Source of the DNA: Eledone cirrhosa
Taxonomy: Eukaryota
Direction: 5' to 3'
Length of the DNA: 64,000 nt
Assembly (NCBI GenBank): GCA_964016885.1
Contig: OZ024751.1
Location: 3,224,001 to 3,288,000, forward strand
Shown here: positions 17,972-64,000 of the stretch, piece by piece
How positions within the stretch are numbered: position 1 is the first letter of the stretch
Layout: each line of letters opens with the position of its first letter
Notes under the pieces: generated by a model
The model's input: the letters and a program-made list of their open reading frames with translations, nothing else
Told to the model about the DNA's origin: nothing
The model's database searches: none
Translations under genes and position numbers: made by a program

Positions 17972-19735
17972 GGTTGTTCGGAGACCTCTTGGCGGACGTC
18001 TACTGCAACTGGCAGCAGAACGGGAGAAGTCCCACCTCTGTGAGCCGAGGAGCGGTGGCGCTGCTGAGAAAGGATCCGAATAAGGGGGATAACATAGATA
18101 ATTTCAGACCCATAACTCTGCTAAACACAGAGTTCAAGATTTTGACAAGATTCTAGTAAGAGAGGCGCAGACATACGCCATTCCAGACAGATCCATCCAC
18201 GACAACCTCCACCTCATGCGATACATCGTAGAGAGGGTAGCTAGGGAACCTGGTACGGGTGGGTCCTTGATCAGTCGAAAGCTTTCGATAGGGTTGACCA
18301 TCGTTATCTGGCGGCAGTCCTGAGGGCGGATGGCTTTGGGCCTGTCCTCAGAGGCTGTATCACTGCCATGTACAGCGACGTCTGTATCTGTGGTGAGAGG
18401 GAAAGGTCACCTTTCGGAACCGTTCAACATCATGCGCTCGATCCACCACGGATGTTCCCTCTCGTCCGTTTTGTACGTATTGACTCTCAAGCCATTAACG
18501 CACAAACTGGAGACATTGATGGGGGGGGGGGGTCCCGCGAGAACTGGGATGTGGAAGATCCGTGTCAGCATATGAAGACGATGTCACCGTAGCGGTGTCG
18601 AACGCCAAACACTTCGAGGCGATCGGCACTACACTAAGAAAATACGAGGTGATGACAGGAGCAATGATCAACCAGGAAAAGTCGGTGGGCCTGCAGCTCG
18701 GCACCTGGAGAGGCAAGTTCATGCCGTCCAACAACGTGCTCGGGCGCTGGACGGACGGAGTGGTTAAATTGCTAGGTGTCTGGTTCTGTCCGGACCTCCA
18801 GACGAAAGGGACCGCTTGGAGACTGGAATGTCTTCAGGCGCTTACAGCCCTCAACCAGTCAGGCAATGCGATAGGTGGAAACTCCATCTTGTCGTTCTAT
18901 AGAGGATTAGTGGAGGTGAAGAGCGATGACGTACTTGGGGAGACTCTGGTTGATGAAAATCAACTAGCCATTCTCTTCGGGAGAACTTTCGGGCCGGGAC
19001 CTATGGACAACTTTCAGAAATCCCTGGCCTGGCAGTGCTACCGAGGAGCTTTGCCTGTTCGGGATAAACTCTACAGGCATGGAAGTGCCGTCAGCCGGGC
19101 ATGTCCGAAATGCGCGCAGGGCGACGAAACCGTCCTGCACGCACTCGTCCAGTGTCCGAGCATTGCTTACTTGTCGGTTTATGTCGAACACCTGCTGTCG
19201 CGTTTAGGACGGATCCGTCTATCAGCTGAATCCATCGTGAGGATTGCCCCGCCGCCTTCCTTTAGCCGGGAAGGGCAGGTAGTTTTTATCTGTCTGGTGG
19301 CCATGGCGAAAGAGATAGTGTGGTGGACACGTTTGAAAGGGCTGAAGACGAGCACTTACCTCTTCGGTGATGCCCTGATTAACTTTTTCAAATTTCATTT
19401 GAAAAGGAAAATCATGGTAGAGAGGGAAGTGTTCTCTTCCCAGCATTTTGTTGAAAGATGGGTGAGAGAGACAAGCATGGCCCGAGTGAATTGGCCTGCT
19501 CTGAGTATGCGCCTGTAAATTAAAGGTGGAAAACTGGGAGAGGGCACTTGCCCTGGTGGTCAGGGTCACTGTGGGCTTTCTCTACGAATGTCCCTCGGAA
19601 GTCTCCCCCCCATTGGGGAATTTTTCATTGTTTCTTTGTTGTCACATCCCCCCCCTTTTTTTTTTTACACATGCAGAAATGCTCATTTGTACCGCCCTGT
19701 ATTGTCCTGTGTTGTCCTTAATGTTATATTTTATA
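17972..19735 (+). mobile_element. Tx1/L1-type LINE fragment A (RT with internal deletion, zinc finger, 3' UTR); same family as 47523-53401
   Basis: NFRPITLLNTEFKI, YEDD, CPKCAQGDETVLHALVQC; frameshifts. Confidence 0.9.
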
Positions 19736-20530
19736 TCTGGCAGTGCTACAGGGGAGCTTTGCCGGTTCGAGATAAGTTCTACAGGCACGGAAGTGCCATC
19801 AGCTGAACCTGTCCGAGATACGCGCTGGGCGACGAAACCGTCGTGCACGCACTCATTCAGTGTCCGAGCATTGCTGACTTGTGGAACTATGTCGAACAGT
19901 TGTTGTCACGTGTAGGACGGATCCGGTTATCGACTGAGTCCATTGTGCAGATTGCCCCACCATCCTCCTTTAAGGAGGAGGAAGAGAAAGAAGTTTTCAT
20001 CTGCCTGGTGGCCATGGCAAAAGAGATTGTATGGTGGACAAGGTTGAAAGGATTGAAGACGGACACTTTCCTCTTAGGCGAATCCCTGATTAACTTTTTC
20101 AAATTTCACTTGAAGAGGAGAATCAGGGTGGAGAGGCAAGTGCTGTCTTCTAGTAAGTTTGTTAAACGGTAGGTGAAAGTGGCGTGTCTGGTCCGAGTGA
20201 ACGGGCCCGCTCTCAGTAAGCGCCTGCAGACTGAGCAGTGGGAGAACTGAGAGAGGGCGCTTACCCTGGTGGTCAGGGTGGCTGTGGTATTTTGTGTGGT
20301 TTTCCCCACGAGTGACCCTCGGAGCTTTCCCCCTTTTGGGGGAATTTTTGTTGTTTAAATTTTTTTGATTTGTTTTTCCACATTTCTATCTTCTTGTTAT
20401 AACCTTTTTACACGGCCAAAATCCACTTTGTATCGTCCTGTACCGTTCTGTGCCGTCCGTAATGTTTTTCTTCATGTTAGCGCTTGTGGCCAATAAAGAA
20501 ACCATTGTTATTATTATTATTATTATTATT
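19736..20530 (+). mobile_element. Tx1-type LINE 3' fragment B ending in AATAAA + (ATT)n
   Basis: WQCYRGALPV...HALIQCPS...WWTRLKG; tail cttgtggccaataaagaaaccattgttattatt. Confidence 0.9.
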
Positions 20531-23500
20531 ACAGTTGCATTTATCTTGCTTTATGTTCATACAAGTTATCACCAAGTCACAACCAGTGACCTCAAGAGAC
20601 AACAAGGTCCGCCATGTTCAAAAAAGAACATACATACACCCACAGGCATCTTGTGATGTACTTATATTGATGTACTTATATTGACAGAATCTTCCTTAGT
20701 ATATGGGCAGGTCCCATTAGTACTATCTTTTGTATTTCTCCTATACGCGGGTTTCCTGGGATTTGCGATAAATAATCATTAGACCCCTTAGGTATCATTC
20801 CTAGAGAGCCTACAAACACTGGTATTATTTTAGTTCTCAATTTCCATATTTTTCAAATTTCTATCTCCAGGTCTTTATACTTGCTCAATTTTTCAAATGA
20901 TTTTATAGATACATTCTTGTCTATTGGAACGGACATATCAATTAGCAGGCATACCCTCTTTTTAAAGTCCTTCAGTATTATATCAGGTCTATTTGCATCT
21001 ATTTTTCGGTCTGTTTGGATGGTAAAGTTCCACAAGATTGAGATGTGATCTTATTCAAGTACGGGAGGTGGTTGATGCTCCCACCAATTCTTTTGATGGG
21101 GCATGACAATATGCTTTCACATTATCCAATGTATGTATTGTGCAGCTCTGTCGTGCCTGTTTAGGTATTCGGATGGAGCTATAGGACTGCACATTGGAAT
21201 TATATGGTCTGGTCTCTGGTTGTTTTTTACATACACGGCATAATGGGCTGCATCCATTTTTTATTATGTTGGCTTTGTAATTTTTTGTTGGCAGACACTG
21301 ATCTTGCGCTGATATAATTAGTCCTTCAGTCTCCGATTTCAGTTCACTGATGCCAACCACTGATGCCAACCACTGATGCCAACCACTGATGCCAACCACT
21401 GATGCCAACCACTGATGGGTTTAAGTTTTGTCAACATCAGGATTGTTAGCTCTTTCTAGATATTTTCCATACAGAGGCTTTTCTTGCCATTACTTAGCTA
21501 GTATCTGTAGCAGTTCTTTCTTTGCAGTTACTTTTACCTGCTTTGCTTTTTCTGTTTTTCATTTCAGCAGTTAATAGAACTTCTGTAATTTGTAGTCCAT
21601 TACTGTATCTTTGTGCATCTTTTTTTTAATGGAGTATGATCTTTTGATGCTTTCGTGTTTCAAAACGAGTTTGATCATCCAATCATGTGATTCCCTTCGA
21701 TATGTAGATAATCCAATTGTTGCAGTTTTCAACGCAATATCTAAGTGGATTAACCCACGTCCTCCTTCTTTCCTAGGGAGATATATTCTATCTGTATCTG
21801 CCGTAGGGTGATGCATTCTGTGCATGATTAAGAATTTTCTAATTTTTGTATCGAGCCTACGGATCTCTGTGATTGACCAGTTGATGACATTGTAACTGTA
21901 GGTTACTACTGGTGTGGCAAGCGTGTTTATGGCATAGATCCTATTCCATGCATTCAATTGCGTTCTTAAGATTGCTCTTACATTCCTTCCTTATCCTTTC
22001 CCTCACTGTCGAGTGCTTGATTCCGTCTCCTTCACAAACACCTAGATATTTGTAAGTTTCCTCTTGATCAAGTTCTCTTATCACGTTCCCCCGATCAAGA
22101 TTAATGTCTGAACTTTTCAGCAGCTTTCCTCTGGTGAACGTTGCTTTGGCGCATTTATCTAGTCCAAACTCCATTTTAATGTAATCAATGAACTGCTTCA
22201 CAGTGGATAATAGCCCTTGCAATTGTTCATCATTTTTTTGCAAATAGTTTCAGGTCATCCATGTAGAACAAGTGATTAATGGTTTTGTCATAGACTTTAT
22301 ATCCATGTTTTGTTTCATTGAGCATTTTACTTAATGATATAAGTGCGATGCAGAATAAAAGCGGTGATAAAGAGTCACCCTGAAAAATTCCACAATTAAT
22401 ATTAACTTCTCCAGCTTCCAGTGATTTTTTTTTCACTATTCAAAAGGAGTGAAATAGATCATTTGTTATCAAGTGATTATATTTATATTCAGTTAGGACT
22501 GATGTTAAAATGTTATACATCGTGGTCAAGCAAGTTATCGGTCTGTAATTTTTGGGATTGTTTGTCTCATCATTCTTCGGAAGTAGGAATGTAATGCCGT
22601 TAACTAGCCATGATGGTATCTTTTCTGGCTCTTTAACCATTTCATTGTAAAGTTGGGCTAACAGCTCATGAGATTCTGTGAAGGCATTTATCCAAAAATT
22701 TGGTATTTTGTCTTTTCCTGGGGATTTCCATTTGCTGGTTTTTCTAAGAGCCAAACGCAACTGTTCAACTGTTATATTTTCCCATGTTTGTTCCTCAAGC
22801 TGAGCTGTATCTTTCATTTGTCTGTCTATCCATGGGGCATGTATATTATGAACTCTTTCTTCGGCCCAGATCTTTTCCCAGAATTCTTGCACTTCCTCCT
22901 TGGGTGGTATTGATTTAGCAGTTATTGTTGACTTGCCAATTTTTCTGTAGAATTTTCTTTGGTTGTTTTTGAACATATTATTGTCCTTATATAATCTAGA
23001 TCGTCTTTTAAAGCGCCTTATACGAGCAGCTTTGGCTGACACTTTTTGCTTGATTATTTCTATCAGCATGTCTATGTCACTTGTTGATTTTAGACTGTAT
23101 TTTCTTTTCAATATTCTAAGTTTAGTTTGTTTAACATGTTCACCTACTTTGTAGTTTGTTAAAATTTCTCTGTCAGATCGGACAAGGTTTATTTGGCGAT
23201 TGATGCTCTCTTAACAAGTAGGTTTTTTGTGGGAATTCCTTTTTTTTTTCATTTTCACTCCACATAAGTGAGTGGTGACTTTAGCCGATGCATAATAGAG
23301 ATGATTTAGATCAGTAATGTTTAGTAATTTCTTGGTGGTGAACATGGAGGGCCAACAGTAGGAGTATTCCGGTTATGGAAGGTCTCCAGCTCCGAATAGA
23401 TGGGAAGGTTTGAACCATTAGCTGATTTTTCGACCCCAGTCTGGTTCCTCTCTGAGAGACGCGGCCACTTTTGACACGGGTGACGGCCGGTCCGGTATGA

Positions 23501-23948
23501 GATTTTATCATTTGACATTGGCTTTATTTTGTTGCGTTTTATCCTTAACAGCCAGGGGGAAATCATTTCGTGTTACCACTCCTAGGACTAGTGTCAACCA
23601 AGGCTAGAGGGGTCGTCCATCCCTAGAGACACGGCTACCCCCCCCCCCCCCGGCCGCCATCCCGGGATTTCTTGGTCACGAGGTTTTTTTATTTTTGTTT
23701 ATTTTTTAAATTGTTATTATCATGAGTGGTTCCTTAATGTGAGCACTGCGTTGCTTAAGAATGAAATTATTATTAATAATATAATATACTTTTTGTTGAA
23801 GTTGCCTGCTGTTGTTGTTGGCTATGTCGGTGGTGCTGGGGCTTTTTCTATTGTTGGTGGGGAAGGAGGGAGCCAACAGTGCCATAGTGGTTGACGTTTG
23901 ACCGGGTCACTAAGTCAGTCTATTTATATCTTTTGATAGCCTCTCCCT
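20531..23948 (-). mobile_element. R4/Dong-type retrotransposon family A, decayed and internally deleted
   Basis: fragments [40 protein letters not shown] match ORF 53543-57193. Confidence 0.92.
21345..21416. repeat. 13-bp tandem repeat CACTGATGCCAAC, ~5.5 copies, expanded inside the Dong ORF
   Basis: single copy at ~54219-54235 in the intact element. Confidence 0.9.
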
Positions 23949-23959
23949 TATTATTATCA

Positions 23960-24018
23960 TTGTCTTGTACTGTCTTTAATGTCTACTTTGTGTAAACCCT
24001 TGTGGTTAATAAAGAAAG

Positions 24019-24073
<55 letters not shown>
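23960..24073 (+). mobile_element. ~60-bp Tx1 3' terminus + (ATT)n
   Basis: tgtactgtctttaatgtctactttgtgtaaacccttgtggttaataaagaaagcattatt matches ~53325-53390. Confidence 0.85.
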
Positions 24074-24074
<1 letters not shown>

Positions 24075-24440
24075 TTTGAGTCTCAGTCATTGATGTTAGT
24101 TAACTGGAAAGTTTGTTGAAATGAAAATCAAGCCACTACCTGCAGCCTCAGATATTCAGGACGTATCGGAGGGTTCTTGCTGTTTCCAGCAGGCATGCCT
24201 TTTGAAGCGTTCCAAAAAGCGTGGCGGGACCAATGTTCTTTAACCATCCCTGGAAACTCTTTGAGATAGTACCTAGTGCGCCTATGACAATCGGGACCAC
24301 TTTGACTTCATGGCAGTTCCAAATCCTTTTTACCTCCCACTTTAAGTCCTGGTATCGGTTAATTTTCTCCCTCTCCTTCTCTTTCACTCTCGTGTCGAAT
24401 GGGTAGGCCACATCCACAATCAGGCACGATCTTTTTTCTT
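24074..24440 (-). mobile_element. R4/Dong family B 3' fragment (RLE C-terminus)
   Basis: DVAYPFD...[12 protein letters not shown]...PIVIGALG. Confidence 0.9.
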
Positions 24441-26525
24441 TGGGAGCAGATCGGGAGCATTCCCAGTTTTGTGAGCCGGGGAGGAGTGGCGCTGCTGAGG
24501 AAAGACCCGAACAAGGGGGATGTTATTGATAATTTCAGGCCCATAACCCTGCTAAACGCAGAGTTCAAGATGTTGGCCAAGGTGTTAGCAACGAGGTTGG
24601 CGCTTGTCGTCAAGGGTCTGGTGGGAGAGGCGCAGACATGCGCTATCCCGGACAGATCCATAAACGACAACCTCCACCTCATGAGATACATCATAGAGAG
24701 GGTGGTTAAAGAACCTGGCAAGGGTGGGGCCCTGATCAACTTGGATCAAACCAAAGCATTCGATAGGGTCGACCATCGGTACCTGGCGGCGGTCCTCGAG
24801 GCAGCCGGTTTCGGGCCCGTTTTCAGGCGTTGGATCGCAGCAATGTACAGCGACATCTGCTCAGTTGTGAGGGTGAACGGTCACCTGTCGCAGCCGTTCA
24901 GCATCATGCGCTCAGTCCGCCAGGGTTGTCCCCTCTCGTCCCTCTTGTACGTATTGGCTCTCGAGCCGTTACTGCACAAACTGGGGGCGATGAGGGGCGT
25001 CCCACGCGAACTAGGATGCCGAAAATCCGAGTCGGCTTACGCTGACGACGTCACCGTGGTGGTGTCGAGCACCAGACACGTCCAGATGCTCGGCACCTCT
25101 CTCAAGGAATACGAAATGGTGACAGGAGCAAAGATAAACCAGGAAAAGTCGGTGGGCATGCAGCTAGGCACCCGGAGAGGCAAGTCCATGCCGTCCGACA
25201 GCGTCGTGGGGAGTTGAACGGACGGACCGGTTAAATTGCTCGGGGTCTGGTTCGGACCGGACCTCCAGATGGAGAAAAACTGGAACGAGGTGACGAGCAG
25301 GGTGGCCTCCCTCACCCAGAAATGGGCTGAGAGGAGGCTGTCCCTGAAAGGCCGGGCAGAAGTGGCGAATGCGTACATCGCCTCCGTCAACTGCTACCGC
25401 CTCACCGTCGTCCCTTGCTCCAGCCCAACTCTCACCAAAATGGAGCGCCTCCTCTTCCGCTTTTTGTGGAAGGGACGCGCTCCCATGGTCAGACGATCCA
25501 TCTGCTGTCAACACCCGTTGCGTGGAGGACTGGGCATGCCATGGCTGATGATGCGCAAACATGCGCTGAGGCTGAGACATCTCTGGTGCTTCCTTGATGG
25601 TGGACTGGTGGAGGGGAAGAGCGACGACGTTCTCGGAGAGATCCTGGGCGTCGAAGAAGATCAGCTGCTTGCTCTCTTCCGGAGAACTTTCAGCCCGGGG
25701 CCTATGGATAACTTCCAAAAATCCCTGGCCTGGCAGTGCTACAGGGGAGCGCTGCCGGTTCGAGATAAGCTCTACAGGCACGGAAGTGCCGTCAGCCGAG
25801 CCTGTCCGAGATGCGCGCATAGCGACGAAACCGTTGTGCACGCACTCGTTCAGTGCCCGAGCATTGCTGACTTGTGGAGCTATGTCGAACAGTTGCTGTC
25901 ACGTGTGGGACTGATCCCGTTGTCGACTGAGTCCATTGTGAAGATGGTCTCGCCGTCTTCCTTCGAGGAGGAAGGGCAGGCGGTTTTCATCTGCCTGGTG
26001 GCCATGGCGAAAGAGATTGTGTGGTGGACAAGGTTAAAAGGATTAAAGACAAACACTTTCCTCTTCGGCGAATCCCTGATTAACCTTTTCAAGTTTCACT
26101 TGAAGAGGAAAATCAGGGTGGAGAGGCAAGTGCTGCTTTCTAGCAAGTTTGTTGAAAGGTGGGTGAATGTAGCGAGAATGGTCCGAGTGAACGGGACCAC
26201 TCTGAATATACGTCTATAGTTTGAGAGATGGAAAAATTGAGAGAGGGCGCTTGCCCTGGTAGTCAGGGTGGCCGTGGTCTTTTGTGTGGTTTTCGCCACG
26301 AGTAACCCTCGGAGGTTTCCCCCTATTGGGGAATTTTTCATTGTTTCAATTTTCATTTTATTGTTTATATATATATATGTTTTATGTCTTTTTTCTTTTC
26401 TTATATAAATAATAAAAATATTTACACGCACAAAACCCACATCGTACCGTCCTGTTCCGTCTGTGATGTTTTTCTTGATGTCATCCCTTGTGGCCAATAA
26501 AGAAATCATTATTATTATTATTATT
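24441..26525 (+). mobile_element. Tx1-type LINE C, 5'-truncated, near-identical to ~45262-47526
   Basis: ORFs 24399-25217 and 25236-26219 (LDQTKAFDRV, RQGCPLS, YADD, zinc finger); same stop as copy E; internal deletion at ~25600; (ATT)n tail. Confidence 0.93.
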
Positions 26526-26699
26526 GAATAGGAAAATCAGGGTGGAGAGGCAATTTCTTCTTTCTAGCAAGTTTGTTGAAAGGTGGGTGAATGTAGCGAG
26601 AATAGTCCGAGTGAACGGGACCACTCTGAATATACGTCTGTAGTTTGAGAGATGGAAACATTGAGAGAAGGCACTTGCCCTGGTAGTCAGGGTGGCCGT

Positions 26700-29600
26700 G
26701 ATCTTTTTTGGGGGAAGCGATTTTTTTCGAAGTTTTTAAAAATAAATCGTAAGCCCGAATATTCAGATTTATTTTTAAAAACTTCGAAAAAAATCGCTTC
26801 CCCCACCAAAAGAAAATTATGGAAATTTTCGACCTTGAAACGGTAAACAACGTTCAGGTCAAAAGTTTAAAGGCAGCCACTGCAGATTTCACCACAACTA
26901 CGACGGCTACAGTCATGCCTGTCATCCACTCTACTGAATGTGAAGGCAAAACTCAAAAGCTACCATCACAACCTTCTGCCATAGCAGCAGTATCATCTGA
27001 AAACGACATCACCACCACCGCCACCACCACCACCACCACAACAACAACTCAGAGCAATAACGACAATAACACCGACAGCTTCAATGTAAACAAGGATGGC
27101 GGTGGCAACAGCAAGAATGACGACAACAACAACAATAAGAGCATCAGAAACACCACATTTGCTGCAGCAGCAAAAACAAAACGCTTATTGAATTTGATAT
27201 TGATATTAGCGATAAAGACGAACAGTTGGCCAAAGCGTGGAGGCTAATTAAACAGGAGAAGTCCTGGGCAAACCAGACCATCCTGGACGAGGCAATAGCG
27301 GCCATGCAAAGGAGGACGGTGCTCTTTCGATGTATTTCGGTGCAGACACGAAAAGTGGAACTTGCGAGCCAAGCAGAGGTAGAGGCTGCTTTGGAGTACA
27401 TCGGAAGTAACATAGAGTACAAAGCAAGAGGCAAACAGTTCGGTACCATCTCGGTACTGTTCAAAACCGAGGCCCTCGCAGAACGGAACGCATTATCATG
27501 CATCCCTCCTATATGGGTAAAAAGACAGTGAAGGTACGCATTCCCAGTATCCCACCAGGAATGAACATATGGTGGCTGCTGGGATGCGTAATCGAGGAGG
27601 GGAAGACACTACCCTCCTTGACATCAAATGGACAGAGAGAGAAGACTGGCCCGAAATGGATTTGGAGATTCTTCTCCAAATGAAACCGGATGATATGAAT
27701 AACATCCCGGATTTTGCCCGCCTGCAGGACGGGACAACAATCCAACTAATGATTGACGGAAGAAGGCCACGCTGCTTCGTCTGCGGGGAAGCAACGCATC
27801 TTCAAGCCTTCTGCCCTCAGCGCAAACATGCAGGGGGGTCGCAAACCTCCTTTGTTGCCAACGCCAGTGTCAGCACGGAAAGCTGCACCACCACCACCAC
27901 CACCACCACTAAAAACAACATCAACAAAAACACGGACACCAACATCAAAAGCAGCCGGATCACCACCAACACCAAAACCAATCCAAGGAGAAAACGAGGA
28001 AAGCTCTCCCCCCCCCCCCCAATTATACACATAGACAAAACAATAAACGCACACACAGACACAGAGACACTCACAGACACAGACCCTTTGTCTTCCAGCA
28101 GCGAAGATGAAGGAAAACCCAAAAGTGCAAAAAAAAACAGAGAAAACTCACAAAAAAAGCCCCAACAAAACACAAAAACACACAACAAAAAATACAGACA
28201 CCACTAACGCAAACACTTCCCCAATAACATCATCACCAACAGCAACATCGACACCCCCTCCACAATCCCCGAAACGCAAACAACCTTAACAAACACAAGT
28301 ACAAATAAACACACAAATACCTGAAATTGCAGACACCACACCTACAACAAACATAGACATACCCGAAACAACACAACCAAAACCATCGCCACCACCTTCA
28401 CCAAAACGAAAACAAATAAAACCACACCAACAAAATGTTAAAAACTTCGTGCTTGTCAGAAGGGCCAACGATAAACTGATGGCCTTCTTAGCGCGAAGCG
28501 AGGACATTCAAACAGAGGGGCAGATTTTTGAAATGAGCACATTTTTCGTGCCAGAAGATTTGCTTCTGGTCCGAATGTCACTCAATTCCTTCAAAGAAAT
28601 TCGAGAGAGCTTTCCCCAAGACGTGGGAACCCCGAATGTGAAACCCACATCGAGACTTTTAAAGGGGTTCCCAAAAGAAACCCCACCAACCATGGAGGTC
28701 GAACCACCCGACCTTCACAAGATCCGGGAGGTAAGTAAACCTTCCCCCTCTCTCTCTTAGCTTACCAATATGGCCATATTAAGAGTAGGAAGTTTAAATG
28801 TTCGCGGCCTGGGGTCACCCTGGAAGCAGGGTCGCCTGCTCAACGACCTCCGGTCGCTGGAAATGGATGTGATTGCCGTAAGCGAGAACAGAATTTCCGA
28901 CACGCGCGCACTAGCCCCCATTTTCGACGTCTATCAGATCTTCGCATCTGTTAGCAGGCCGGGAATGTGGGGTGGGGTGGCAGTGCTGTTTAGGAAAGGA
29001 CTGGATCTCGAGGTAAGGTCGATCTTCCGAGACCCGGACGGTAAGTTGGTGGTCTTGGATGTGAGCAGTAGCGAAGGTGGTGCTTTTAGACTGCTGGCCG
29101 TCTACGCCCCTACAGGGGCCGAACGACCTGACTTCTTTAGGCGCCTGGAGACTTTTCTGGGTACGTCTCGCCCTTTACTGTTAGCGGGGGACTGGAATGG
29201 CATCTTAGACGCACGCTTGGATTGTGTGGGAGTAGCCGATAGGAGCGGGGGGTGCAAAAGCCTCAAGCACCTACTCAGCCAGTTCCAACTGTCTGACAGG
29301 TATCGACTAGATTTCCTCAATGTGCCAGTATGAACATGGACCAACCGAATGGGGTCATCTAGATCGTATATAGACAGGATCTTCATTAGGAAAATAGATA
29401 GAAATAGTGTGGGCTGTCCACTTTTTAAAACGGTCGCCTATTCAGATCACAAATTTGTGATCTGTACGGTCGACCTAAATAAAACGCGTAGGTTAGGACC
29501 GGGTTACTGGAAGCTGAACATGTCATTTCCGGCACGTAAGGCTTACAGGGACCGAGTCAACAATTTAGTTAAGCAAAAGTTGACAGGGGGGATCATCAAC

Positions 29601-32531: not shown

Positions 32532-32532
<1 letters not shown>

Positions 32533-36206: not shown

Positions 36207-36262
<56 letters not shown>

Positions 36263-36263
<1 letters not shown>

Positions 36264-48092: not shown

Positions 48093-48126
<34 letters not shown>

Positions 48127-53401: not shown

Positions 53402-53542
53402 TTGCATTTACCTTGCTTTATGTTTATACGAGTTATCACCAAGTCACAACCAGTGACCTCAAGAGACAACAAGGTCCGCCATGTTCAAGAAAGAACACAC
53501 ATATTCACACATGCATCCTTAGTGTTTAGACTTGTGATGTAC

Positions 53543-56500
53543 TTATATTGACAGGATCTTCCTTAGTATATGGGCAGTTCCCATTAGTACTATCTTTTGT
53601 ATTTCTCCTATACGCGGGTTTCCTGGGATTTGCGATAAGTAGTCGTTAGACCCCTTAGGTATCATTCCCAGAGCGCCTACAACCACTGGTATTGTTTTAG
53701 TTCTCAATTTCCACATTTTTCCAATTTCTATCTCCAGGTCCTTATACTTGCTCAATTTTTCAAATGTTTTTATAGATACATTCTTGTCTATTGGAACAGA
53801 CATATCAATTAGCAGGCATACCCTCCTTTGAAAGTCCTTCAATATTATATCAGGTCTATTTGCATCTATTTTTCGGTCTGTTTGGATGCTAAAGTTCCAC
53901 AAGATTGAGATGTGATCTTTTTCAAGTATGGGAGGTGGTTGATGCTCCCACCAATTCTTTTGATGGGGCAGGTCAAAATGCTTACACATTATCCAATGTA
54001 TGTATTGTGCAGCTCTGTCATGCCTGTTTAGGTATTCGGTTGGAGCTATAGGACTGCACATTGAAATTATATGGTCAATGGTCTCTGGTTGTTTTTTGCA
54101 TACACGGCATAATGGGCTGCACCCATTTTTTATTATGTTGGCTTGGTAATTTTTTGTTGGCAGACACTGATCTTGTGCGGAGATAATCAGTCCTTCAGTC
54201 TCCGATTTCAGTCCAGAGGATGCCAACCACTGATGGGTTAAAGTTTTGTCAACATCAGGATTGTTAGCTCGCTCTGGGTATTTTCCATACAGAGGCTTTT
54301 CTTGCCATTTCTTAGCCAGTTTCTGTAGCAGTTCTTTCTTTGCAGTTACTTTTACCTGCTTTGCTTTTTCTGTGTTTTCCATTTCAGCAGTAAATGGGAC
54401 TTCTGAAATTTGTAGTCCATTACTGTATCTTTGTGCATCTTTTGTAATGGAATATGATCTTTTGGTGCTTTCGTGTTTCAAAACGAGTTTGATCATCCAA
54501 TCATGTGATTCCCTTAGATATGTGGATAATCCAATTGTTGCAGTTTTCAACACAATGTCTAACTGGATTAACCCACGTCCTCCTTCTTTCCTAGGGAGAT
54601 ATATTCTATCTATGTCTGCCTTAGGGTGATGCATTCTGTGCATGGTTAAGAATTTTCGGATTTTTGTATCGAGCCTACGGATCTCTGTGCTTGACCAGTT
54701 GATGACATTGTAACTGTAGGTTACTACTGGTATGGCAAGCGTGTTTATGGCATCGATCCTATTCCTTGCATTCAATTCCGTTCTTAAGATTGCTCTGACT
54801 CTGCGGTAACATTCCTTCCTTATCCTTTCCCTCATTGTCGAGTGCTTGATTCCGTCTCCTTCACAAACACCTAGATATTTGTAAGTTTGTTCTTGATCAA
54901 GCTCTCTTATCACGTTCCCCCGATCAAGATTAATGTCTGAACTCTTCAGCAGCTTTCCTCTGGTGAACGTTGCTTTGGCGCATTTATCCAGTCCAAACTC
55001 CATTTTAATGTCATCACTGAACTGCTTCACAGTGGATAATAGCCCTTGCAATTGTTCATCATTTTTTGCGAATAGTTTCAGGTCATCCATGTAGAACAGG
55101 TGATTAATGGTTTTGTCATAGACTCTATATCCATGTTTTGTTTCATTGAGCATTTTACTTAATGGTATAAGTGCGATGTAGAATAAAAGCGGTGATAAAG
55201 AGTCACCCTGAAAAATTCCACAATTAATGTTAACTTCTCCAGCTTCCAGTGATTTTGTTTCACTATTCAAAAGGAGTGTCGTTCTCCATGTCCTCATACT
55301 GAATGACAAAAACCTCCTGACAACGGGGGATATTTTGAAAATCTCTAAACATTTTTCAATCCAACTGTGTGGCAAACTATCAAATGCTTTTTTATAATCT
55401 ATCCAAGCAATCGATAGATTTTTGTGTCTATTATGACAATCTTCCAGTATCATTTTGTTAACCAGAAGCTGATCCTTACAGCCATATGAGCCTCGTTTAC
55501 ACCCTTTCTGCTCAATGGGAAATAGGTCATTTGTTATCAGGTGGTCATATGTGTATTCAGTTAGGACTGATGTTAAAATTTTATACATTGTGGTCAAGCA
55601 GGTTATCGGTCTGTAATTTTTGGGATTGTTTGTCTCATCATTCTTCGGTAGCAGGAATGTAATGCCGTTAACTAGCCATGATGGTATCTTTTCTGGCTCC
55701 TTAACTATTTCATTGTAAAGTTGGGCCAACAGCTCATGAGACTCTGTGAAGGCATTTATCCAAAAGTTTTGTATTTTGTCTTTTCCTGGGGATTTCCATT
55801 TGCTGGTTTTTCTTAGAGCCAAGCGCAGCTGTTCAACTGTTATATTTTCCCATGTTTGTTCTTCAAGGTGAGCTGTTTCTTTCATTTGTCTGTCTATCCA
55901 TGGGGCATGTATGTTATGAACTTTTTCTTCGGCCCAGATCTTTTCCCAGAATTCTTGCACTTCCTCCTTGGGTGGTATTGATTTAGCAGTTATTGTTGAC
56001 TTACCAATTTTTCTGTAGAAGTTTCTTTGGTTGTTTTTGAACATATTATTGTCCTTATAGAATCTAGATCGTTTTTCAAAGCGCCTTATACGAGCAGCTT
56101 TGGCCGACACTTTTTGCTTGATTGTTTCTATCAGCATGTCTATGTCACATGTTGATCTTATACTGTACTTTTTTTTCAATTTTCTAAGTTTAGTTTGTTT
56201 AACATGTTCACCTACTTTATAGTTTGTTAAAATTTCTATGTCAGATCGGAGAAGGTTTATTTGGCGATTGATGTTATCTTGCCAAGTAGATTTCTTGTGG
56301 GAATTCCTTTGTTTTTTCATCTTCACTCCACATAAGTGAGTGGTGACTTTAGCCGATGCATAATAGAGATGATTTAAGTCAGTAATGTTTATTTTGTTTG
56401 TGATGATAATGTTTTTGAGAATTATGTTAGTCTTGTGTATTATCTTTTGGTTCTGTTTGGAGTTCTGGATCTTAGGGAGGGTGTCTCGTTCCCCCATGTC

Positions 56501-57193
56501 AGTTTCTTTCATTTTCATCCATTCGATCATAATTTCATCCTTCAAGTTGGCAAGTTCATTCTCATTCATTTCTTTATCATTTACGATCTCATTATTTTCA
56601 TTTGGAGTTTCATCCTGAGCATGCACTCCCTCCACTTTTTCGCTCCTTTCTTTAATTTGTTCTGTTGCCAGTGATTCCGCCCCAACTCTGGGATTCGAAG
56701 TGTTACAGTTTACCTCGTTTTCACTGACACTTGCTTCATTTTCCCTTCGCTGACTTTGTGCTACTAGCTTGATCTGATCAATTTCTATATCAGTTAGTAA
56801 CTTTTTTCTTACAATATTTCTTCGTATATTGGCTAGTTTGTTACTGTCAATATAGCCTCTGTTTTTGGGATGTTTCTTTTTCCAGTTGATATATGTTTGC
56901 TCTGTATTCGATGTATTTGATGGGTAGTACATGGCAGTATAGAAAGCCTCAAGGACTTCTTTATTATCTTCCCTTGACCATTTTTCTCTCTTTTTCTTTG
57001 GATTTCTTGGTGGTGAGCATGGAGGGCCAACAGTAGGACTATTCCGGTTATGGGAGGTCTCCAGCTCCGAAGTGATGGGAAGGTTTGAACCATTAGCTGA
57101 TTTTTCGACCCCAGTCTGGTTCCTCTCTGAGGGACGCGGCCCTTTTTTACCCGGGTGACGGCCGATCCGGTATGAGATTTCATCATTAGACAT
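53543..57193 (-). CDS. R4/Dong-type protein: reverse transcriptase + CCHC knuckle + restriction-like endonuclease, 1216 aa, uninterrupted
   Basis: [38 protein letters not shown]; CRVCKKQPETIDHIISMC; RHD; NRPD...LIDMSVP...KLSKY. Confidence 0.95.
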   Translation of the reverse strand: MSNDEISYRIGRHPGKKGPRPSERNQTGVEKSANGSNLPITSELETSHNRNSPTVGPPCSPPRNPKKKREKWSREDNKEVLEAFYTAMYYPSNTSNTEQTYINWKKKHPKNRGYIDSNKLANIRRNIVRKKLLTDIEIDQIKLVAQSQRRENEASVSENEVNCNTSNPRVGAESLATEQIKERSEKVEGVHAQDETPNENNEIVNDKEMNENELANLKDEIMIEWMKMKETDMGERDTLPKIQNSKQNQKIIHKTNIILKNIIITNKINITDLNHLYYASAKVTTHLCGVKMKKQRNSHKKSTWQDNINRQINLLRSDIEILTNYKVGEHVKQTKLRKLKKKYSIRSTCDIDMLIETIKQKVSAKAARIRRFEKRSRFYKDNNMFKNNQRNFYRKIGKSTITAKSIPPKEEVQEFWEKIWAEEKVHNIHAPWIDRQMKETAHLEEQTWENITVEQLRLALRKTSKWKSPGKDKIQNFWINAFTESHELLAQLYNEIVKEPEKIPSWLVNGITFLLPKNDETNNPKNYRPITCLTTMYKILTSVLTEYTYDHLITNDLFPIEQKGCKRGSYGCKDQLLVNKMILEDCHNRHKNLSIAWIDYKKAFDSLPHSWIEKCLEIFKISPVVRRFLSFSMRTWRTTLLLNSETKSLEAGEVNINCGIFQGDSLSPLLFYIALIPLSKMLNETKHGYRVYDKTINHLFYMDDLKLFAKNDEQLQGLLSTVKQFSDDIKMEFGLDKCAKATFTRGKLLKSSDINLDRGNVIRELDQEQTYKYLGVCEGDGIKHSTMRERIRKECYRRVRAILRTELNARNRIDAINTLAIPVVTYSYNVINWSSTEIRRLDTKIRKFLTMHRMHHPKADIDRIYLPRKEGGRGLIQLDIVLKTATIGLSTYLRESHDWMIKLVLKHESTKRSYSITKDAQRYSNGLQISEVPFTAEMENTEKAKQVKVTAKKELLQKLAKKWQEKPLYGKYPERANNPDVDKTLTHQWLASSGLKSETEGLIISAQDQCLPTKNYQANIIKNGCSPLCRVCKKQPETIDHIISMCSPIAPTEYLNRHDRAAQYIHWIMCKHFDLPHQKNWWEHQPPPILEKDHISILWNFSIQTDRKIDANRPDIILKDFQRRVCLLIDMSVPIDKNVSIKTFEKLSKYKDLEIEIGKMWKLRTKTIPVVVGALGMIPKGSNDYLSQIPGNPRIGEIQKIVLMGTAHILRKILSI

Positions 57194-57446
57194 CTACTTT
57201 ATTTTGTCGCGTTTTATCCTTATCCGCCAAGGGGTAATCTTTTCGTGTTACCACTTCTAGAACGAGTGTCAACCAAGACTAGAGGGGTCGTTCTCCCCTA
57301 GAGACATGGCTATTCCCCGCCGGCCGCCATCCCGGTATTTCTTGGTCACGGGGTTTTATTTTTGTTGTTTTTTTTTAAATTGTTATTATCATGAGTGGTT
57401 CCTTAATGTGAGCATTGCGTGGCTTAAGAATGAAATTATTAATAAT

Positions 57447-57491
57447 TGTCTCCACTCCAGGGACAAGGCCAGCAATCACCCAGTGCATTAC
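57447..57491 (-). mobile_element. 45-bp 3'-end SINE insertion flanked by an AATAAT duplication
   Basis: reverse complement gtaatgcactgggtgattgctggccttgtccctggagtggagaca matches the SINE tail at ~41506-41550; absent from the sister Dong copy at ~23765-23785. Confidence 0.8.
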
Positions 57492-58219
57492 AATAATATA
57501 ATATACTTTTTGTTGTAGTTGGCTGTTATTGCTGCTGGCTATGTCGGTGGTGGTGCCGGGGCTTTTTATATTGTTGGTGAGGAAGGGGTGAGCCAGCAGT
57601 CCCATAATTGTTGATGTAGACGTTTGTCCGTGGCAAGGTCACCAAGTCAATCTATTTATATCTTTTGCTAGCCTCTCTCTTGTCTAGTGCTACCACCACC
57701 TTCCCTTTTCTCTCTCAAGTTAACAGGGGAATAGTGTCAGTAGCATTGAATGAGTGGTGGCGGCGATGATGGATGTGGTGGAATGGTGGCAGCGGTGGTG
57801 TTGTGGTTATTGATATAGTATCTATGAGTTTGTGTTCGTATGTTTAATATATATTTTCATTATATTTTGTGTTGACATATTCCCGTAAAATTTGAATTAA
57901 ACATTTTTTTAAATTTGAGACAATAATAATAGTAATTATTATTATGATGCCGGTGAAGTTGCCGTTATATTTAGTGTGATGGGATAGGTAGTGTATCAAG
58001 TTTCTGGTGTTGGTGAAATTGAAATTGCCGCTGTTCTATATAGTGTAGACAGAGGGTGTTTTGTTCCATTTATAACCATTTTCTTTTTTTGAATACAAAA
58101 TATATCATACAAAATTGAATATTTGAGCGATATAACAATATAATATGGATACAACAATATAATATGGATCCGAAACTTTATGGGACCTCATTCGGTGCCT
58201 TTATGCAACATTTGTGCTA

Positions 58220-58270
<51 letters not shown>

Positions 58271-61200
58271 GTTCTTTGAGTCTCGGTCACTGATGTTAGT
58301 TAACTGGAAAGTTTGTTGAAATGAATATCAAGCCACAACCTGCAGCCTCAGATATTCAGGACGTATCGGAGAGTTCTTGCTGTTCCCAGCAAGCATGCCT
58401 TTTGAAACGTTCCAAAAAGCGTGAAGGGGCCAATTTTCTTTAACCATCCCTGGAAACTTTTTGAGATAGTACCTAGTGCGCCTATGACAATCGGGACCAC
58501 TTTGACTTCATGGCAGTTCCAAATCCTTTTTACCTCCCACTTTAAGTCCTGGTATCGGTTAATTTTCTCCCTCTCCTTCTCTTGCACTCTCGTGTCGAAT
58601 GGGCAGGCCACATCCACAATCAGGCACGATCTTTTTTCTTTGTCCAAAACCACCAGGTCAGGTCTATTGTGTTCCAGTTTCTTGTCCGTCTGTATCCTAA
58701 AATCCCACAGCACCTTCACCTGATCGTTTTCTATCGCCGACTCTGGCTTATGCTCATACCACTTCTCAGAATGTGGTAAATTGTTTACTTTGCATAGGTG
58801 CCAGTGGATCACCCTGCCCATCACATCATGTCTCCAGCCCTTATAGTGAGTCTGGGCTAGGTGTTTACACTCGGATACAATGTGAGCCACAGTCTCCTCT
58901 CTCTCTCCACAGATCCTGCACAGTGGGCTAGCCTCCGCCTTGTAAATATGGTGTTTCAACCACTTCGTTTTGAGGGCCTGCTCTTGCGCAGCCATTAACA
59001 TTCCTTCTGTAGCCTTTTTAAGGTCTCCTCTTTTCAACCAGTTCCATGTCTGTGGATCTCTGAATTCAGTTTTCTCAAAGAAGGAACTATGAAGGGATTT
59101 TTCCTGAAGGCTGCTCTTTCTCCTCGTTGTTATTTCCTCCTTGGACATCCCCTGGTCTATTGTCCCCTCCTTCAGTACAATTCTGTGCATTGGCTCATTA
59201 CTATCAGTCACGTATTTGTGTAGGTTGTTTTTCTCCATCTGAACACAGTCCTCTATGCTGATAAGACCTCTTCCACCTTCAGATCTCCTTATCGACATCA
59301 CTCCTTCAGATCTCCTATCGACATCACTCCTCTTGTGGAACATGTTGTAGATAGTCAATAGCTTCCTAGTCTTCCTATCCATTTCTTTTTGTTCAGCAAC
59401 ATTCCATCTCAGAATTCCCGCACTGTACCTAATAATAGACACAGCTCGGGAATTTACTGCACTTATGGCATTTCTACTGTTCAGATGTGACTTTAATACG
59501 CTCCTTACTCTCCGAATATATTCAGTTCTTATCAATTCCTTCATTTTTTTGTTCTTGATGTCATCAGCCTCCAGAACACCCAAATACTTGTATCCTTCTT
59601 CAGTGTCAATTTCCTTTATCATCTCACCTGTTGGTACCTGGATTCCGTTGCTTCTGCTCAATTTACCCCTCTTCATCACAAGCACTCCACACTTACTAAT
59701 ACCAAATTGCATACATATATCATTGCTGAAAATACGCACAGTGTCAACAAGCACATCCAGCTCCTTCTCACTCTTCCCGAAGAGCTTAAGATCGTCCATG
59801 AAGAGGAGGTGATTGATGGTAAGCTCTCCCTTTCCCAACTTGTATCCTGCTCTCACTTTTAGCAGTATAATGGTCAGGGGCATCAGGGCAAGGACAAACA
59901 ACAGAGGGGACAGACTATCTCCCTGGAAGATACCTCTCTTGATCTTCATGTTTCCCAAGGATTCTCCAGCTGTTTCCCAGGACTTCATACTTTTGCCCAA
60001 CAATTGTCTGATGTTATCTGCCACCTTGAATATCTCTAGGATTTTGGTGATCCAAGAATGAGGAACCATGTCAAATGCCTTTTTGTAGTCTATCCATCCC
60101 ATGGCAAGACCAGTGTGTCTCCTCTTGCAATTCCTCATTACCATCTTATCAATAAGTAACTGGTCCTTTGTACCACGTGACTTCTTTCGGCATCCTTTTT
60201 GTTCGTCCGGTAACAAGTTGTTTGTGTGGAGGTGATGGTAGATTTCCTCAGCATAATGCTTGTCAACAGTTTCCACATTACGGACAGACATGTGGTAGGT
60301 CTATAGTTGGTAACATCATTACCCTTGATTCGGTCCTTCATTACCAGAACTGTGGTACCTTTTGTCAACCACTCTGGTACCTCACCTGACATCAAGCAGT
60401 CATTGAACATGGTTGTCAGTTTCGGGTGGAGGGATGTTATATTTTTAATCCAATACCCCTGCACACCATCTGGGCCTGGTGATTTCCAGCTGGTTAGTTT
60501 TTTGGCCTGCCCCTTAAGAGTTTCAACTGTGATACTCAAATCAGTTTTTTGGTGTGCCTGTTCACTAATCTCCTTCTGTACTGTCTCAATCCACACTGCC
60601 TGGTCATTATGTTTAACATCCTGCTCCCATATTCCTCTCCAGAATGTTTTAGTTTGTTCCGCCTCAGGGATCAAGTCGTTGCCTCTTTCTTTCCCCTCAA
60701 GCTGTCCAAACAGCATCTTCTGGTTGTTGTCAAACATGCGGTTCTGTCTATACTGACTGACTCTGCTCTCGTATCGCCTAATTTTTGCACTCTTTGCTAC
60801 AATGCCTTGCTTCAGTTCCTCTATGATAATATTTAGCTTTTTCCTCCTAGTTTTGTACTTTATTTCCAGTCTATTTTTAGTGTCCATGTTTTTTAGTGTC
60901 CCATTCAGTAGGGACTCAAGCTTTCCAATGTCATTTCTCATTTCCCTGATTTGACCACTCACTCGTTTCTTCCACCCAGGTTCTGATCTTTCTTGTTTGT
61001 TGTTTCCTCTCGCTTTTATACCAAGTAATTTCCTCACCGCATTTGCTGTTGCTTTGAGGATATTGTTGCACTGGTGAAGGCTCCTCGCCTCAAGGTATGG
61101 GATGACTTTGTTTACCTTAGCTGTTGTTTCTTTTAACTTTTTCCTGTCTACAAATCTTAGGTTCATAGGTTTCCCACTATCATTGTTCAATTCATCTACC

Positions 61201-63050
61201 ACTAAGTTTAGGACATCAACCAAATCTTGTCCTAGCTCGTCAGCATTCATCTCCTCAATGACCGTATCTTTGTTCCAGGTATTATTTATTTCAGCATTCA
61301 GATCATTGTCTGCTTCGGCCAATTTTTGTTCATCTAATTTAAATAGACCAATCTCGTTCCAGATGTTATGCATCCGTTTCCTATAGCCTTTCTCCTTGGG
61401 GTTACTCTTCAGGTAACATTGCATAACAGTTCTATTCAATTCTTTCGTCCAGTTGGTTCTGGTCCCTTTCTTTCTTCCTCTTCCTCCGATACCAGCAGTA
61501 TTTGGTTGACAGCCAGGTCTTTGCTGCTGAGCCAGGGAGCACCTGCTGGGTGATAGTCTGTCACAATACATTCTAGTCTCCACTTCACCGTTATTCGAAC
61601 TGTTTAGGTCCCACATTTAAACACTCTTATCGAGGATTGGTGAATGTATGGTTACATAACCACCGGTGATTTCATCACTCCCGGTGATTTTTGTGTGGCA
61701 CTATCACGCTGTAGACGAACATAAATAAACAAACAAACAGGCAAAAAAAAACCTAAAAAGAATAAGCATAAATTTCATTGTAATGTAATGTTTGAATGTC
61801 TGACTTAGTTTTTCCCTTCCCTTCCCTTCTCTGTCCGTCTGTTTGTTTTTCTCTTCATTTTTCTTTTCTTTCTTTTCTTTACGTTTTTCGTTGTTGCTGT
61901 GCTGCTTTGATTTTGATTTTTGTTTTTTTGATTTTTTGACCGGGTCATCAAATCAGTCTATTTATATATTTTGATGCCTTCCTCTTTTAGTGGGGACACT
62001 ACGATGCATGTGTTAGCAGGAGGTAGTGGGAGAGAATAGCGGCGGTAGTGATAATGAGGCAGTGGTGGTGGTGGTGCTGTACTAGTAGTACTTAGCAGGA
62101 GGTAGTGGGAGAGAATAGCGGCGGTAGCGATAATGAGGCAGTGGTGGTGGTGATGTGATCATAGTACTGTAGTGATGGTGTTGAAGTTGAAGTAGAAATA
62201 GAGGTTGAGGTAACTTGACTAGAGTTTTTAGCGTGGCAATGGTGTTGGTGGTGAAATTATCTTCTCTGTCCACTTAGCTATTTAGCTATTTAGTCATTTT
62301 GCCATTTTCCTCCTTTTCGACTCTAACATTCCTGATCCAAAAATTAAATATTAATATTGTTTATTAATATTGTCTAGTGATACCGCCACCTTCCCCTTTC
62401 GTAAGTTAACAGAAGGTAATGGAGGAATAGCGGTGGTAGCAATGAAGGAGTAGTGGCGGCGGTGATGGGATAGTGGTAGCAATGATGGATGGGGTGGTGG
62501 CGGCGGTGACTATAGTGATGGCGTTGTCGTTACTGAGTTTTGTTGAATAGACTGTAGTTTGTTTGATCGGCGAATATATGCGGTTAGTCGCGTATGTTTA
62601 ATATATGTGTTGACATATTTTCTTAATATTGGAATTAAACATTTTGTGAAAACTTGAGACAATAATAATAGTAATTATTATTATTATGCTGGGATTGGTG
62701 GTGGTAGTGGTGAAATTGCCGTTATCTGGCTGTTGTATTTAGTGTACACAGAGGGATGATGGGATAGGTGGTGTATCTAGTTTGTGGTGTTGGTGAAATT
62801 GCTGTTATTTGGCTGTTCTATATAGTGTAGACAGAGGGGGTTTTCTTCCATTTAAAACCATTTTCTTTTTTGAATATAAAATGTATAATGCAAAATTAAA
62901 TATTTGAGCGATATAACAGAATATTATGGATCCGAATTTTCTGATAGTTGAGTCTGTTGCTAAGAATTGCTATTTCACAATTGATTTAAATATGTTAAAA
63001 ATCAAAAACTTACGGGAGCGATTTCATGACCTTCTATCCACCACGTGCGC
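58271..63050 (-). mobile_element. Near full-length R4/Dong family B element (one frameshift near 60250)
   Basis: ORFs 60138-61616 and 58348-60291 together cover N-terminus, RT, CCHC and RLE; upstream region shares blocks with the family A leader; 5' boundary inferred. Confidence 0.88.
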
Positions 63051-63051
63051 C

Positions 63052-63059
63052 TTCTTCTT

Positions 63060-63143
<84 letters not shown>

Positions 63144-63146
63144 TTT

Positions 63147-63185
<39 letters not shown>

Positions 63186-63196
63186 GTTATTGTTAT
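63052..63196. repeat. Compound (TTC)n(TTA)n microsatellite
   Basis: direct reading. Confidence 0.95.
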
Positions 63197-63433
63197 TCCT
63201 TGAATCTCAGTCATTGATGTTGGTTAACTGGAAAGTCCGTTGGATTGAATATCAAGCCACTACCTGCAGCCTCAGATATTCAGGACGTATCGGAGGGTTC
63301 TTGCTGTTCCAAGCAAGCATGCCTTTTGAAGCGTTCCAAAAAGCGTGAAGGGGCCGATTTTCTTTAACCATCCCTGGAAACCTTTGGAGATAGTCCCCAG
63401 TGCGCCTATGACAATCGGGATCACTTTGACTTC
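63197..63433 (-). mobile_element. 5'-truncated Dong family B 3' end flanked by (ATT)n on both sides
   Basis: matches 32532-32768; followed by attattattgttattat. Confidence 0.9.
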
Positions 63434-64000
63434 ATTATTATTGTTATTATGTCAGGTCGTTCTTCAGCGCTACTGGTAACACTGGTAACATGCAACCCAA
63501 TACAACATGTGCATGATCGGGTCGTCGGCGACTAAATCGGCAACCCTCCAAGCTTGCTTGTGAGGAGGGGGAATTTGGACACCCTTCAGGACAAAAGACA
63601 AAACCCATCAAAGGGGAGGAACTCAGCAGAGCCAACGGCCATCCAATAATTTGTTTTTTTCTGTGGCGCGAGGGACTGCTAGTCTTCATTAAGACATATC
63701 TCTATGAGAAGGTCACTCTGATATAAAACCTGCGGCTTCATTTGCATCCAATGATGTAGATCAGTTTTTTTCTTTTTGGGTAAATGCATTCGATGTTCAG
63801 AGAGTGGGACTGGCCCCGTGCAAAGCCTTTCCTTACTTAAAAAAGCTTCAAGCACAGGTATTACTTAATATGTGACATTTTTTACGATGCATGATATTAC
63901 TGGACATAAGCAAGCAGGACTAAAAAAAAAAAATATCCGTGATACTTATGCTTAAGTATCAAGCTCGAAATCGAGTTGCAGCCATCATATATATATATAT

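Follow-up and report, generated by a model that had tools for sequence, protein, structure and literature searches.

Introduction

Long interspersed nuclear elements (LINEs) of the Dong type (R4 clade) are described in TAA microsatellites of Bombyx mori, Anopheles gambiae, and the snail Biomphalaria glabrata (PMC3812793), and the B. mori element carries a hepatitis delta virus (HDV)-like ribozyme at its 5′ end (PMC3774820). Among Tx1 families, Kibi occupies (TC)n, Koshi (TTC)n, and crocodilian families (TTCC)n or (TTTC)n, and mobilization of SINEU, a crocodilian short interspersed nuclear element (SINE), by Tx1-Mar has been inferred from a common target preference (PMC4494074). Two R1-clade LINEs, TRAS and SART, insert in opposite orientations into the (TTAGG)n telomeric repeats of B. 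mori and form arrays there (PMC10088271), and the Drosophila R1 tandems and transposable element (TE) dimers arising by double insertion illustrate that a target duplication permits a second insertion at the same site (PMC5932611). In octopus, Dong-R4 and L1-Tx1 LINEs are abundant or recently active (PMC8967140, PMC10294476); a further study lists both among the recently active LINEs and reports TE hotspots (PMC13282606), and the parts of these three studies covered here contain no target-site analysis. These statements refer to the portions of each source covered here, as does our use of PMC4640811, PMC3747384, PMC4758252, and PMC3531059 for general background. Here we analyze a stretch of 64,000 nucleotides of the octopod Eledone cirrhosa (“the window”; assembly GCA_964016885.1, contig OZ024751.1, forward-strand positions 3,224,001 to 3,288,000; coordinates below are those of the window), in which Tx1-like and Dong-like LINEs form a 45-kb array on opposite strands of a common (ATT)n repeat.

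It is very probable, in our assessment, that three LINE families with an apurinic/apyrimidinic endonuclease (APE), three with a restriction-like endonuclease (RLE), and a SINE all insert into (ATT/AAT)n in opposite orientations, likely through nicking of opposite strands and regeneration of the target.

Two LINE groups on opposite strands of one array

In the 45-kb block at 17974-63450, all pieces of APE, L1-type reverse transcriptase (RT), and zf-RVT lie on the + strand (within 17974-53384), and all pieces of an element with RT and RLE in a single open reading frame (ORF) lie on the − strand (within 17974-63433). A preliminary description, made from the letters of the window, had proposed this polarity of Tx1-type elements on + and Dong-type elements on −, and Pfam and tblastn bear it out for every piece. 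All 11 tracts of at least five units within 17972-63450 read (ATT)n on the + strand and none reads (AAT)n. Pairwise identity and the RT tree divide the elements into three + (Tx1-like) and three − (Dong-like) families, in agreement with the earlier count of at least three of each; the + families are 73-82% identical to one another, and a long, fully supported branch of the tree separates the two groups. The 12 junction positions listed previously are all of the ATT type, although at 23949 (TATTATTATC) and 63434 (3 units) the tract is short or imperfect. Four tail-to-tail junctions were correctly recognized, at 20510, 24020, 32475, and 53385, with a mere 61-bp 3′ tip as the Tx1-like partner at 24020. 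The statement that the remaining junctions are head-to-tail holds for several of them, but those at 23949 and 24441 are head-to-head, and the tract at 41551, while present, is flanked by the tail of a SINE on one side and by a Tx1-like 5′ end on the other, the SINE having been overlooked.

A repeat-rich region of this kind could be a collapsed or misjoined assembly, particularly with an N gap to the left of the array at 15850-16049. Public read runs compared with 17300-23990 gave only short, fragmented, multi-copy contigs, which neither back nor question the assembly. Nevertheless, an assembly artifact is hardly credible: the copies in the array diverge by 2-35% from one another and have private deletions, junctions of these types are found again at hundreds of loci, and the genome-wide rule described below is independent of this locus.

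Identity of the Tx1-like and Dong-like elements

The Tx1 clade is characterized by a separate ORF1 with a CCHC knuckle and by a C-terminal zinc-binding domain in ORF2. The RT of the + elements has its best PDB matches in L1 ORF2p (E = 4e-44, compared to 1e-19 for R2), and the endonuclease is of the APE type (PF03372, E = 3e-17) and also matches L1 endonuclease structures. In addition, ORF2 contains a zf-RVT domain (Pfam, E = 7e-9), and ORF1, which is open for more than 700 aa in other genomic copies, has a weak zf-CCHC match (Pfam, E = 5e-4) slightly below the curated cut-off. The nearest named homologue is a protein of Argonauta hians (66% identity). These elements fit a Tx1-like identity, the name being based on the domain layout and the target, as the RT tree holds unnamed relatives only. 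Naming of the clades through homologues was given up since almost all of the 13 Dong-like and 266 Tx1-like matches are without an element name. At least three more Tx1-like families that are absent from the window (loci L003, L004, L008, L012, L019, and L028) start directly after ATT tracts in the same orientation. A metagenome scan for Tx1-like relatives yielded 80 distant loci (23-39% identity), one of which has an ATT tract of 4 units, and thus gave no sign of an ATT target beyond the close relatives.

The ORF of the − elements (1216 aa) has RVT_1 alone in Pfam, with no APE, and its nearest PDB entries are R2 proteins, while a CCHC motif and an RLE motif (RHD..RPD..D..K) were read directly from the translation. 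Their domain layout and target fit a Dong-like identity, the homologues being unnamed. There are about 4800 Dong-A 3′ ends in the genome, and the full ORF is present in 11 of 20 sampled young copies of this family, which are approximately 99% identical. A 5′ HDV-like ribozyme is a known Dong trait but does not define the clade. An Rfam scan of 6 loci for such a ribozyme at the 5′ end found none, returning only microsatellite-driven microRNA noise below the gathering scores, and a rough HDV descriptor, uncalibrated on any known ribozyme, found nothing in Dong families A-C. A cluster of descriptor matches in Tx1-C was dropped because shuffled sequence reaches it too (1 of 20).

The 5′ untranslated regions (UTRs) of Dong families A and B (57680-58150 and 62370-62931; also L251 and L112-L140) are 71% identical and have the same terminal bases, whereas the ORFs are only about 40% identical and the RT tree places A with C; a 5′ UTR swap between A and B is possible. 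A GCTCC..AAG-T-run-like motif, seen by eye 25-45 nt from the 5′ end in Dong A-C and in the Tx1-like families of L003, L008, and L012, is possibly an internal promoter element common to both groups. The (AAG)n on the Dong sense strand, as in 63051-63196, recurs at Dong 5′ junctions elsewhere and likely consists of copies of the element’s own first bases. Long (CTT)/(AAG)n runs also replace or accompany ATT at some junctions (L247, L118, and L266).

The repeat as insertion target across the genome

Flanks were tallied in the 3.0-Gb assembly for the best-scoring copies, which lean toward young ones, with queries that stop before the tract and with the window copy counted where it matched. ATT precedes the Tx1-A 5′ end in all 30 copies (AAT in none) and follows the 3′ end in 29 of 30; it also precedes the 5′ end in 24 of 24 non-window copies of Tx1-C, several of which are truncated at different points. 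For the Dong-like families, AAT follows the 3′ end in 30/30 (A), 29/30 (B), and 24/25 (C) copies and precedes the 5′ end in 29/30 (A) and 26/30 (B), and the ATT count is zero in every Dong flank set. The background in flanks outside the arrays is 13 of 6399 30-nt windows with three ATT units and 112 of 6399 with three AAT units. Whole-genome pattern counts, made without ranking of the copies, place 2484 of 2536 Tx1-A 5′ termini after TTATT. For Dong-A 3′ termini on the forward strand, AATAAT follows within 6 nt in 2323 of 2428; the reverse-strand Dong-A count (3344) was discarded because the same sites were counted repeatedly. The genome-wide check of orientation suggested in the preliminary description therefore gives a clear answer: orientation is not random, and each group borders ATT/AAT at its two ends with a constant polarity opposite to that of the other group.

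Single copies lie within the tract at both ends, as observed for 20 of 20 Dong-A copies and for 17 of the 18 Tx1-A copies in which the 3′ end was reached (20 fetched), the eighteenth having ATT followed by (CTT)n. Of a set of 20 young Dong-A copies selected through their 3′ ends, 4 reach nearly full length, the SINE interrupts another 2, and the remaining 14 are 5′-truncated at varying positions. All 14 truncated copies begin after (AAT)n, three of them with a short filler or a duplicated piece. These truncation points, together with SINE target duplications that start with ATTAT, argue that the repeat is a target and not a tail, and the target regeneration proposed earlier is supported by the tract at both ends of single copies and by the same 8-19-bp SINE duplications. 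The idea that new Dong insertions remove the 5′ half of their neighbor was rejected as unneeded because 5′ truncation affects the young copies themselves, in 14 of the 18 that are uninterrupted; moreover, the upstream flank in copies with both ends is not the missing half.

Many LINEs bear short tandem tails, and the tracts might accordingly be tails of the elements, with loose insertion and later elements landing in the A+T-rich tails of both groups. The length of the 3′ tract does vary by family (median 51 nt in Dong-B, 22.5 nt in Dong-A, and 18 nt in Dong-C), and part of each tract may thus arise during insertion. Tails do not account, however, for the tract at 5′ ends and at all 14 truncation points, for the 12 of 29 Tx1-A 5′ ends with no recognized element beyond the tract, or for a SINE that has only ATTAT in unique DNA. 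This explanation, largely refuted by the 5′ tallies, retains very little probability.

Polarity beyond the 45-kb array

Among 429 tracts at 292 fetched loci, some of them overlapping, the polarity rule is obeyed by 689 of 697 recognized tract sides (215 Tx1-like +, 381 Dong-like −, and 93 SINE +). It also holds for 12 of 12 recognized sides in a sample of 40 evenly spaced 10-kb pieces (400 kb) and for 28 of 28 sides of long tracts. A second mixed array lies 36 kb to the right of the 45-kb block (C11, window coordinates about 99700-121800, L034-L036) and includes an inverted segment with Tx1-like elements on −, Dong-like elements on +, and tracts that read AAT, i.e., the strands and the sense of the tract flip together. 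On contig C1, five Tx1-A 5′ ends are found at a spacing of 6-7 kb. In view of the genome-wide polarity, the second array, and the C1 series, the 45-kb array is one example among many and not a special locus.

Series such as that on C1 raise the question of tandem copies from single events, either by RT template jumping or by unequal crossing-over, to which same-family head-to-tail neighbors in general, the 98%-identical Tx1-B pair in the window, and a few Dong-A neighbors at about 99% identity would also correspond. The opposite-strand Tx1/Dong junctions, however, cannot result from jumps between sense RNAs, and neighbors frequently belong to a different family or are far older, with systematic age differences between neighbors in the samples; next to young Dong-A, many same-orientation neighbors come from a different family or share only 85-95% identity. 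Given these unlike neighbors and the divergence of the copies, most copies were not made in one event, and single events are a very unlikely source of the arrays.

A SINE with the same target

A SINE of approximately 190 bp makes up 2.3% of the 400 kb sampled. In a set of 30 copies, including two apparently duplicate loci and one distant match, the 3′ junction is ATTAT in 29, and a target duplication of 8-19 bp is present in 24, compared to 14% of shuffled pairs. Copies in unique DNA have no (ATT)n tail, just the duplicated ATTAT site; a solitary copy outside the array at 2336-2520 (+), of the same SINE as that at 41437-41550, has an 11-bp target duplication starting with ATTAT. Compared by eye, the SINE 3′ end resembles the Tx1-like 3′ ends (common CCTTGTG...AAAG..GAAA.C), and the head is tRNA-like, with A- and B-box-like motifs; ARAGORN and Rfam scans of the SINE found no tRNA. 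Since the 3′ ends of the SINE and the Tx1-like elements resemble each other, the SINE is likely moved by the Tx1-like enzyme, which likely nicks the bottom strand directly after ATAAT. SINE copies also occur inside Dong-A copies that are at least 99% identical to their family (L368 and L370), which indicates that SINE mobilization is recent.

Proposed mechanism and growth of the arrays

In target-primed reverse transcription (TPRT), the 3′ end of an element primes on the strand opposite to the element’s sense. Under this model, nicking and priming would take place on the AAT strand for the Tx1-like APE enzymes and on the ATT strand for the Dong-like RLE enzymes. With tract left on either side of it, every insertion would likely provide a landing site for its successor, and junction tracts, if longer than ordinary tracts and preferred for their length, may attract more Dong elements. 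On this view, about 14 separate insertions, made at different times and subsequently shortened by deletions, would add up to the 45-kb block.

Several observations bear on such feedback. Tracts of at least 14 units touch a Tx1-like or Dong-like LINE in 15 of 16 cases (the first 16 on C1) compared to 2 of 17 short random tracts, and a LINE lies across the 3′ tract of young Dong-A in 22/30 cases and across the 5′ tract in 23/28, compared to 3/36 random tract sides (Fisher p-values for these enrichments, 2e-6 and 8e-8). The Dong-A tracts have a median length of 52.5 nt on the 5′ side and 22.5 nt on the 3′ side, and the longer 5′ tracts and the (AAG)n runs suggest slippage during Dong integration.

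Positive feedback appears to be the simplest reading of array growth, with selection or chromatin as a live rival. Under the latter, targeting is real but long arrays arise mainly through survival in LINE-filled regions and not through longer or regenerated tracts. The clustering of long tracts would agree with this, and the finding that young Dong-A copies adjoin older LINEs far more than random tracts do is predicted by either model. On the other hand, long tracts are nearly always LINE junctions (the same 15 of 16), and the flanks beyond the two local arrays, about 160 kb in all, have no LINE sequence apart from two short matches of another type, along with scattered SINEs. The clustering is therefore at the scale of junctions and not regional, and an origin mainly through selection or chromatin seems unlikely, though far from negligible.

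Several points weigh against targeted insertion with feedback. A few fixed ATT letters might be part of the Tx1-A 5′ end itself, although the truncated Tx1-C copies and the SINE make this less likely, and the length of a LINE target duplication is unreadable within a pure repeat. Eight of the 697 tract sides break the polarity, mostly where AAT and ATT tracts adjoin. The strand of the first nick is deduced from the TPRT model. The long-tract sample consists of 16 clustered tracts from a single contig (its first 4.2 Mb), and the small clustered samples and overlapping search loci mean that the Fisher p-values overstate independence. The element library was built from local copies, and old families beside “empty” tracts may escape it; enrichment beside older LINEs could also have selection or chromatin as its cause. 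Empty alleles were not observed, and the read runs gave only short fragmented contigs at the locus. Finally, four junctions are without an ATT tract (the left edge at 17974, 19735, 24441, and about 41440). The earlier proposal that one microsatellite grew into the array is therefore plausible but not demonstrated for this block, because its left edge and three inner junctions are tract-free.

A wider picture can be offered tentatively, at somewhat less than an even chance. An octopod guild of self-amplifying retrotransposons may have formed when an ATT-specific Tx1-like lineage converged, on the other strand, on the target of the RLE-bearing Dong elements. The guild would make most long (ATT)n tracts as its own safe landing sites, resulting in thousands of polarized interstitial arrays, an APE/RLE counterpart of telomeric TRAS/SART, and its APE enzyme would also drive the SINE that fills about 2% of the genome.

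Organization of the array and its surroundings

The array begins with a Tx1-like fragment (17974-19734, +; 87% to family A) that is 5′-truncated, has an internal deletion, and shows no ATT at its left edge, where a Penelope-like GIY-YIG fragment recognized by eye (about 17300-17970, −) abuts it. A Tx1-like 3′ fragment (19737-20503, +; 82% to family B) follows with no tract in between, and an ATTGTT(ATT)7 tract (20504-20531) joins it tail-to-tail with an older Dong-like family A copy (20532-23949, −; 90% to 53403-58219) that has internal deletions and is 5′-truncated. The imperfect short ATT tract and the 61-bp Tx1-like family A 3′ tip (23950-24019, +) are followed by an (ATT)18 tract at a tail-to-tail junction (24020-24073) and a Dong-like family B 3′ fragment (24074-24440, −), which is head-to-head, without a tract, with a 5′-truncated Tx1-like family B element (24441-26507, +; 98% to 41566-47504). 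In the next segment (26508-26812, +), (ATT)6 precedes 190 bp that repeat the 3′ region of Tx1-B, and a piece of the Tx1-C 5′ UTR follows in inverted orientation. This inverted piece (26702-26813) sits at a hairpin of the Tx1-C 5′ UTR, beside the repeat of the preceding element’s 3′ region, and is a possible product of fold-back or twin priming.

The Tx1-like family C element (26813-32474, +) has ORF1, APE, RT, and zf-RVT with in-frame stops, and is joined tail-to-tail through (ATT)19 (32475-32531) to a degraded Dong-like family B element (32532-36207, −). A head-to-tail Dong-Dong junction with an (ATT)18 tract (36208-36281) leads to a Dong-like family C element, near full length but degraded (36282-41440, −). 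An internally deleted SINE (41437-41550, +), with a 3′ end like those of Tx1-like elements, is separated by (ATT)5 (41551-41565) from the 5′ end of a near full-length Tx1-like family B element (41566-47504, +), which has ORF1 with a CCHC knuckle, APE, RT, and zf-RVT, with frameshifts. It is joined head-to-tail through (ATT)6 (47505-47522) to a near full-length Tx1-like family A element (47523-53384, +) with frameshifts and a small deletion.

On the right, (ATT)6 (53385-53402) forms the tail-to-tail junction with the young Dong-like family A copy (53403-58219, −), whose 1216-aa ORF (53543-57193; RT, CCHC, and RLE motif) is open and which lacks about 100 nt of its 5′ end. An (ATT)17 tract (58220-58270) at a head-to-tail Dong-Dong junction is followed by a near full-length Dong-like family B element with one frameshift (58271-63050, −), the tract (CTT)13(ATT)18 T-run (ATT)9 (63051-63196), a Dong-like family B 3′ fragment (63197-63433, −), and the short ATT tract of the right edge (63434-63450). 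Elsewhere in the window, a degraded RTE-like LINE recognized by eye (about 8200-9880, +) ends in mixed GTT/ATT/CTT sequence, and two adjacent 310-bp tandem arrays (4872-5839 and 5838-6696) have about three copies with 99% identity. A tandem repeat of about 420 bp to the right of the window (L031-L032) has a 240-bp unit in common with 7960-8200.

Comparison with known systems

In the full-text literature searched, with Repbase, Dfam, and supplements, whose family descriptions may already mention the target, outside the search, we found no ATT-targeting Tx1-like group and no APE/RLE pair sharing one target. The parts of the system are themselves known; what appears new is the ATT specificity of Tx1-like elements, the sharing of a target across endonuclease classes in a fixed polarity, the connection to a SINE, and the evidence on feedback. 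In these arrays, the two unrelated endonuclease classes of LINEs have converged on one simple repeat, a clean natural example of convergent target choice, and the RLE partner has young copies with a full ORF (11 of 20 sampled) that offer material for cleavage and structure work. A likely partner LINE can be named for an abundant SINE, and in practice a long ATT microsatellite marker from this genome will mostly be a retrotransposon junction. Moreover, the proposed mechanism is a testable one for the origin of long ATT microsatellites and for part of the octopus TE hotspots (reported in the portions covered of PMC13282606).

The targets named in the preliminary description, TAA for Dong and microsatellites for some Tx1 families, agree with the published accounts (PMC3812793; PMC4494074). 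Similar to the described Dong elements, the − elements have one ORF with RT, CCHC, and the RLE motif and have (AAT)n at both ends; in contrast, three families coexist here and have their target in common with an APE group, and the ribozyme of B. mori Dong has no counterpart found at the 5′ end by Rfam or the rough descriptor. The Tx1-like families resemble Kibi and Koshi as APE elements in a microsatellite and, going by the target descriptions covered, are set apart from these and from the crocodilian families by (ATT)n, and also by their octopod host. As with SINEU in the portions of its description covered, a SINE is inferred to be moved by a Tx1 group, although in the present SINE the head looks tRNA-like by eye, the 3′ end resembles that of the LINE, and ATTAT suffices instead of a long tract. 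The Drosophila R1 tandems and TE dimers, as far as covered, are single-family, whereas six families and a SINE are involved here and the target itself can lengthen. The closest functional analogue, within the sources covered, is the TRAS/SART pair, in which two LINE families occupy one repeat in opposite orientations and form arrays; both of its members are of the R1 clade and telomeric, whereas the arrays of E. cirrhosa combine APE and RLE elements at thousands of interstitial sites.

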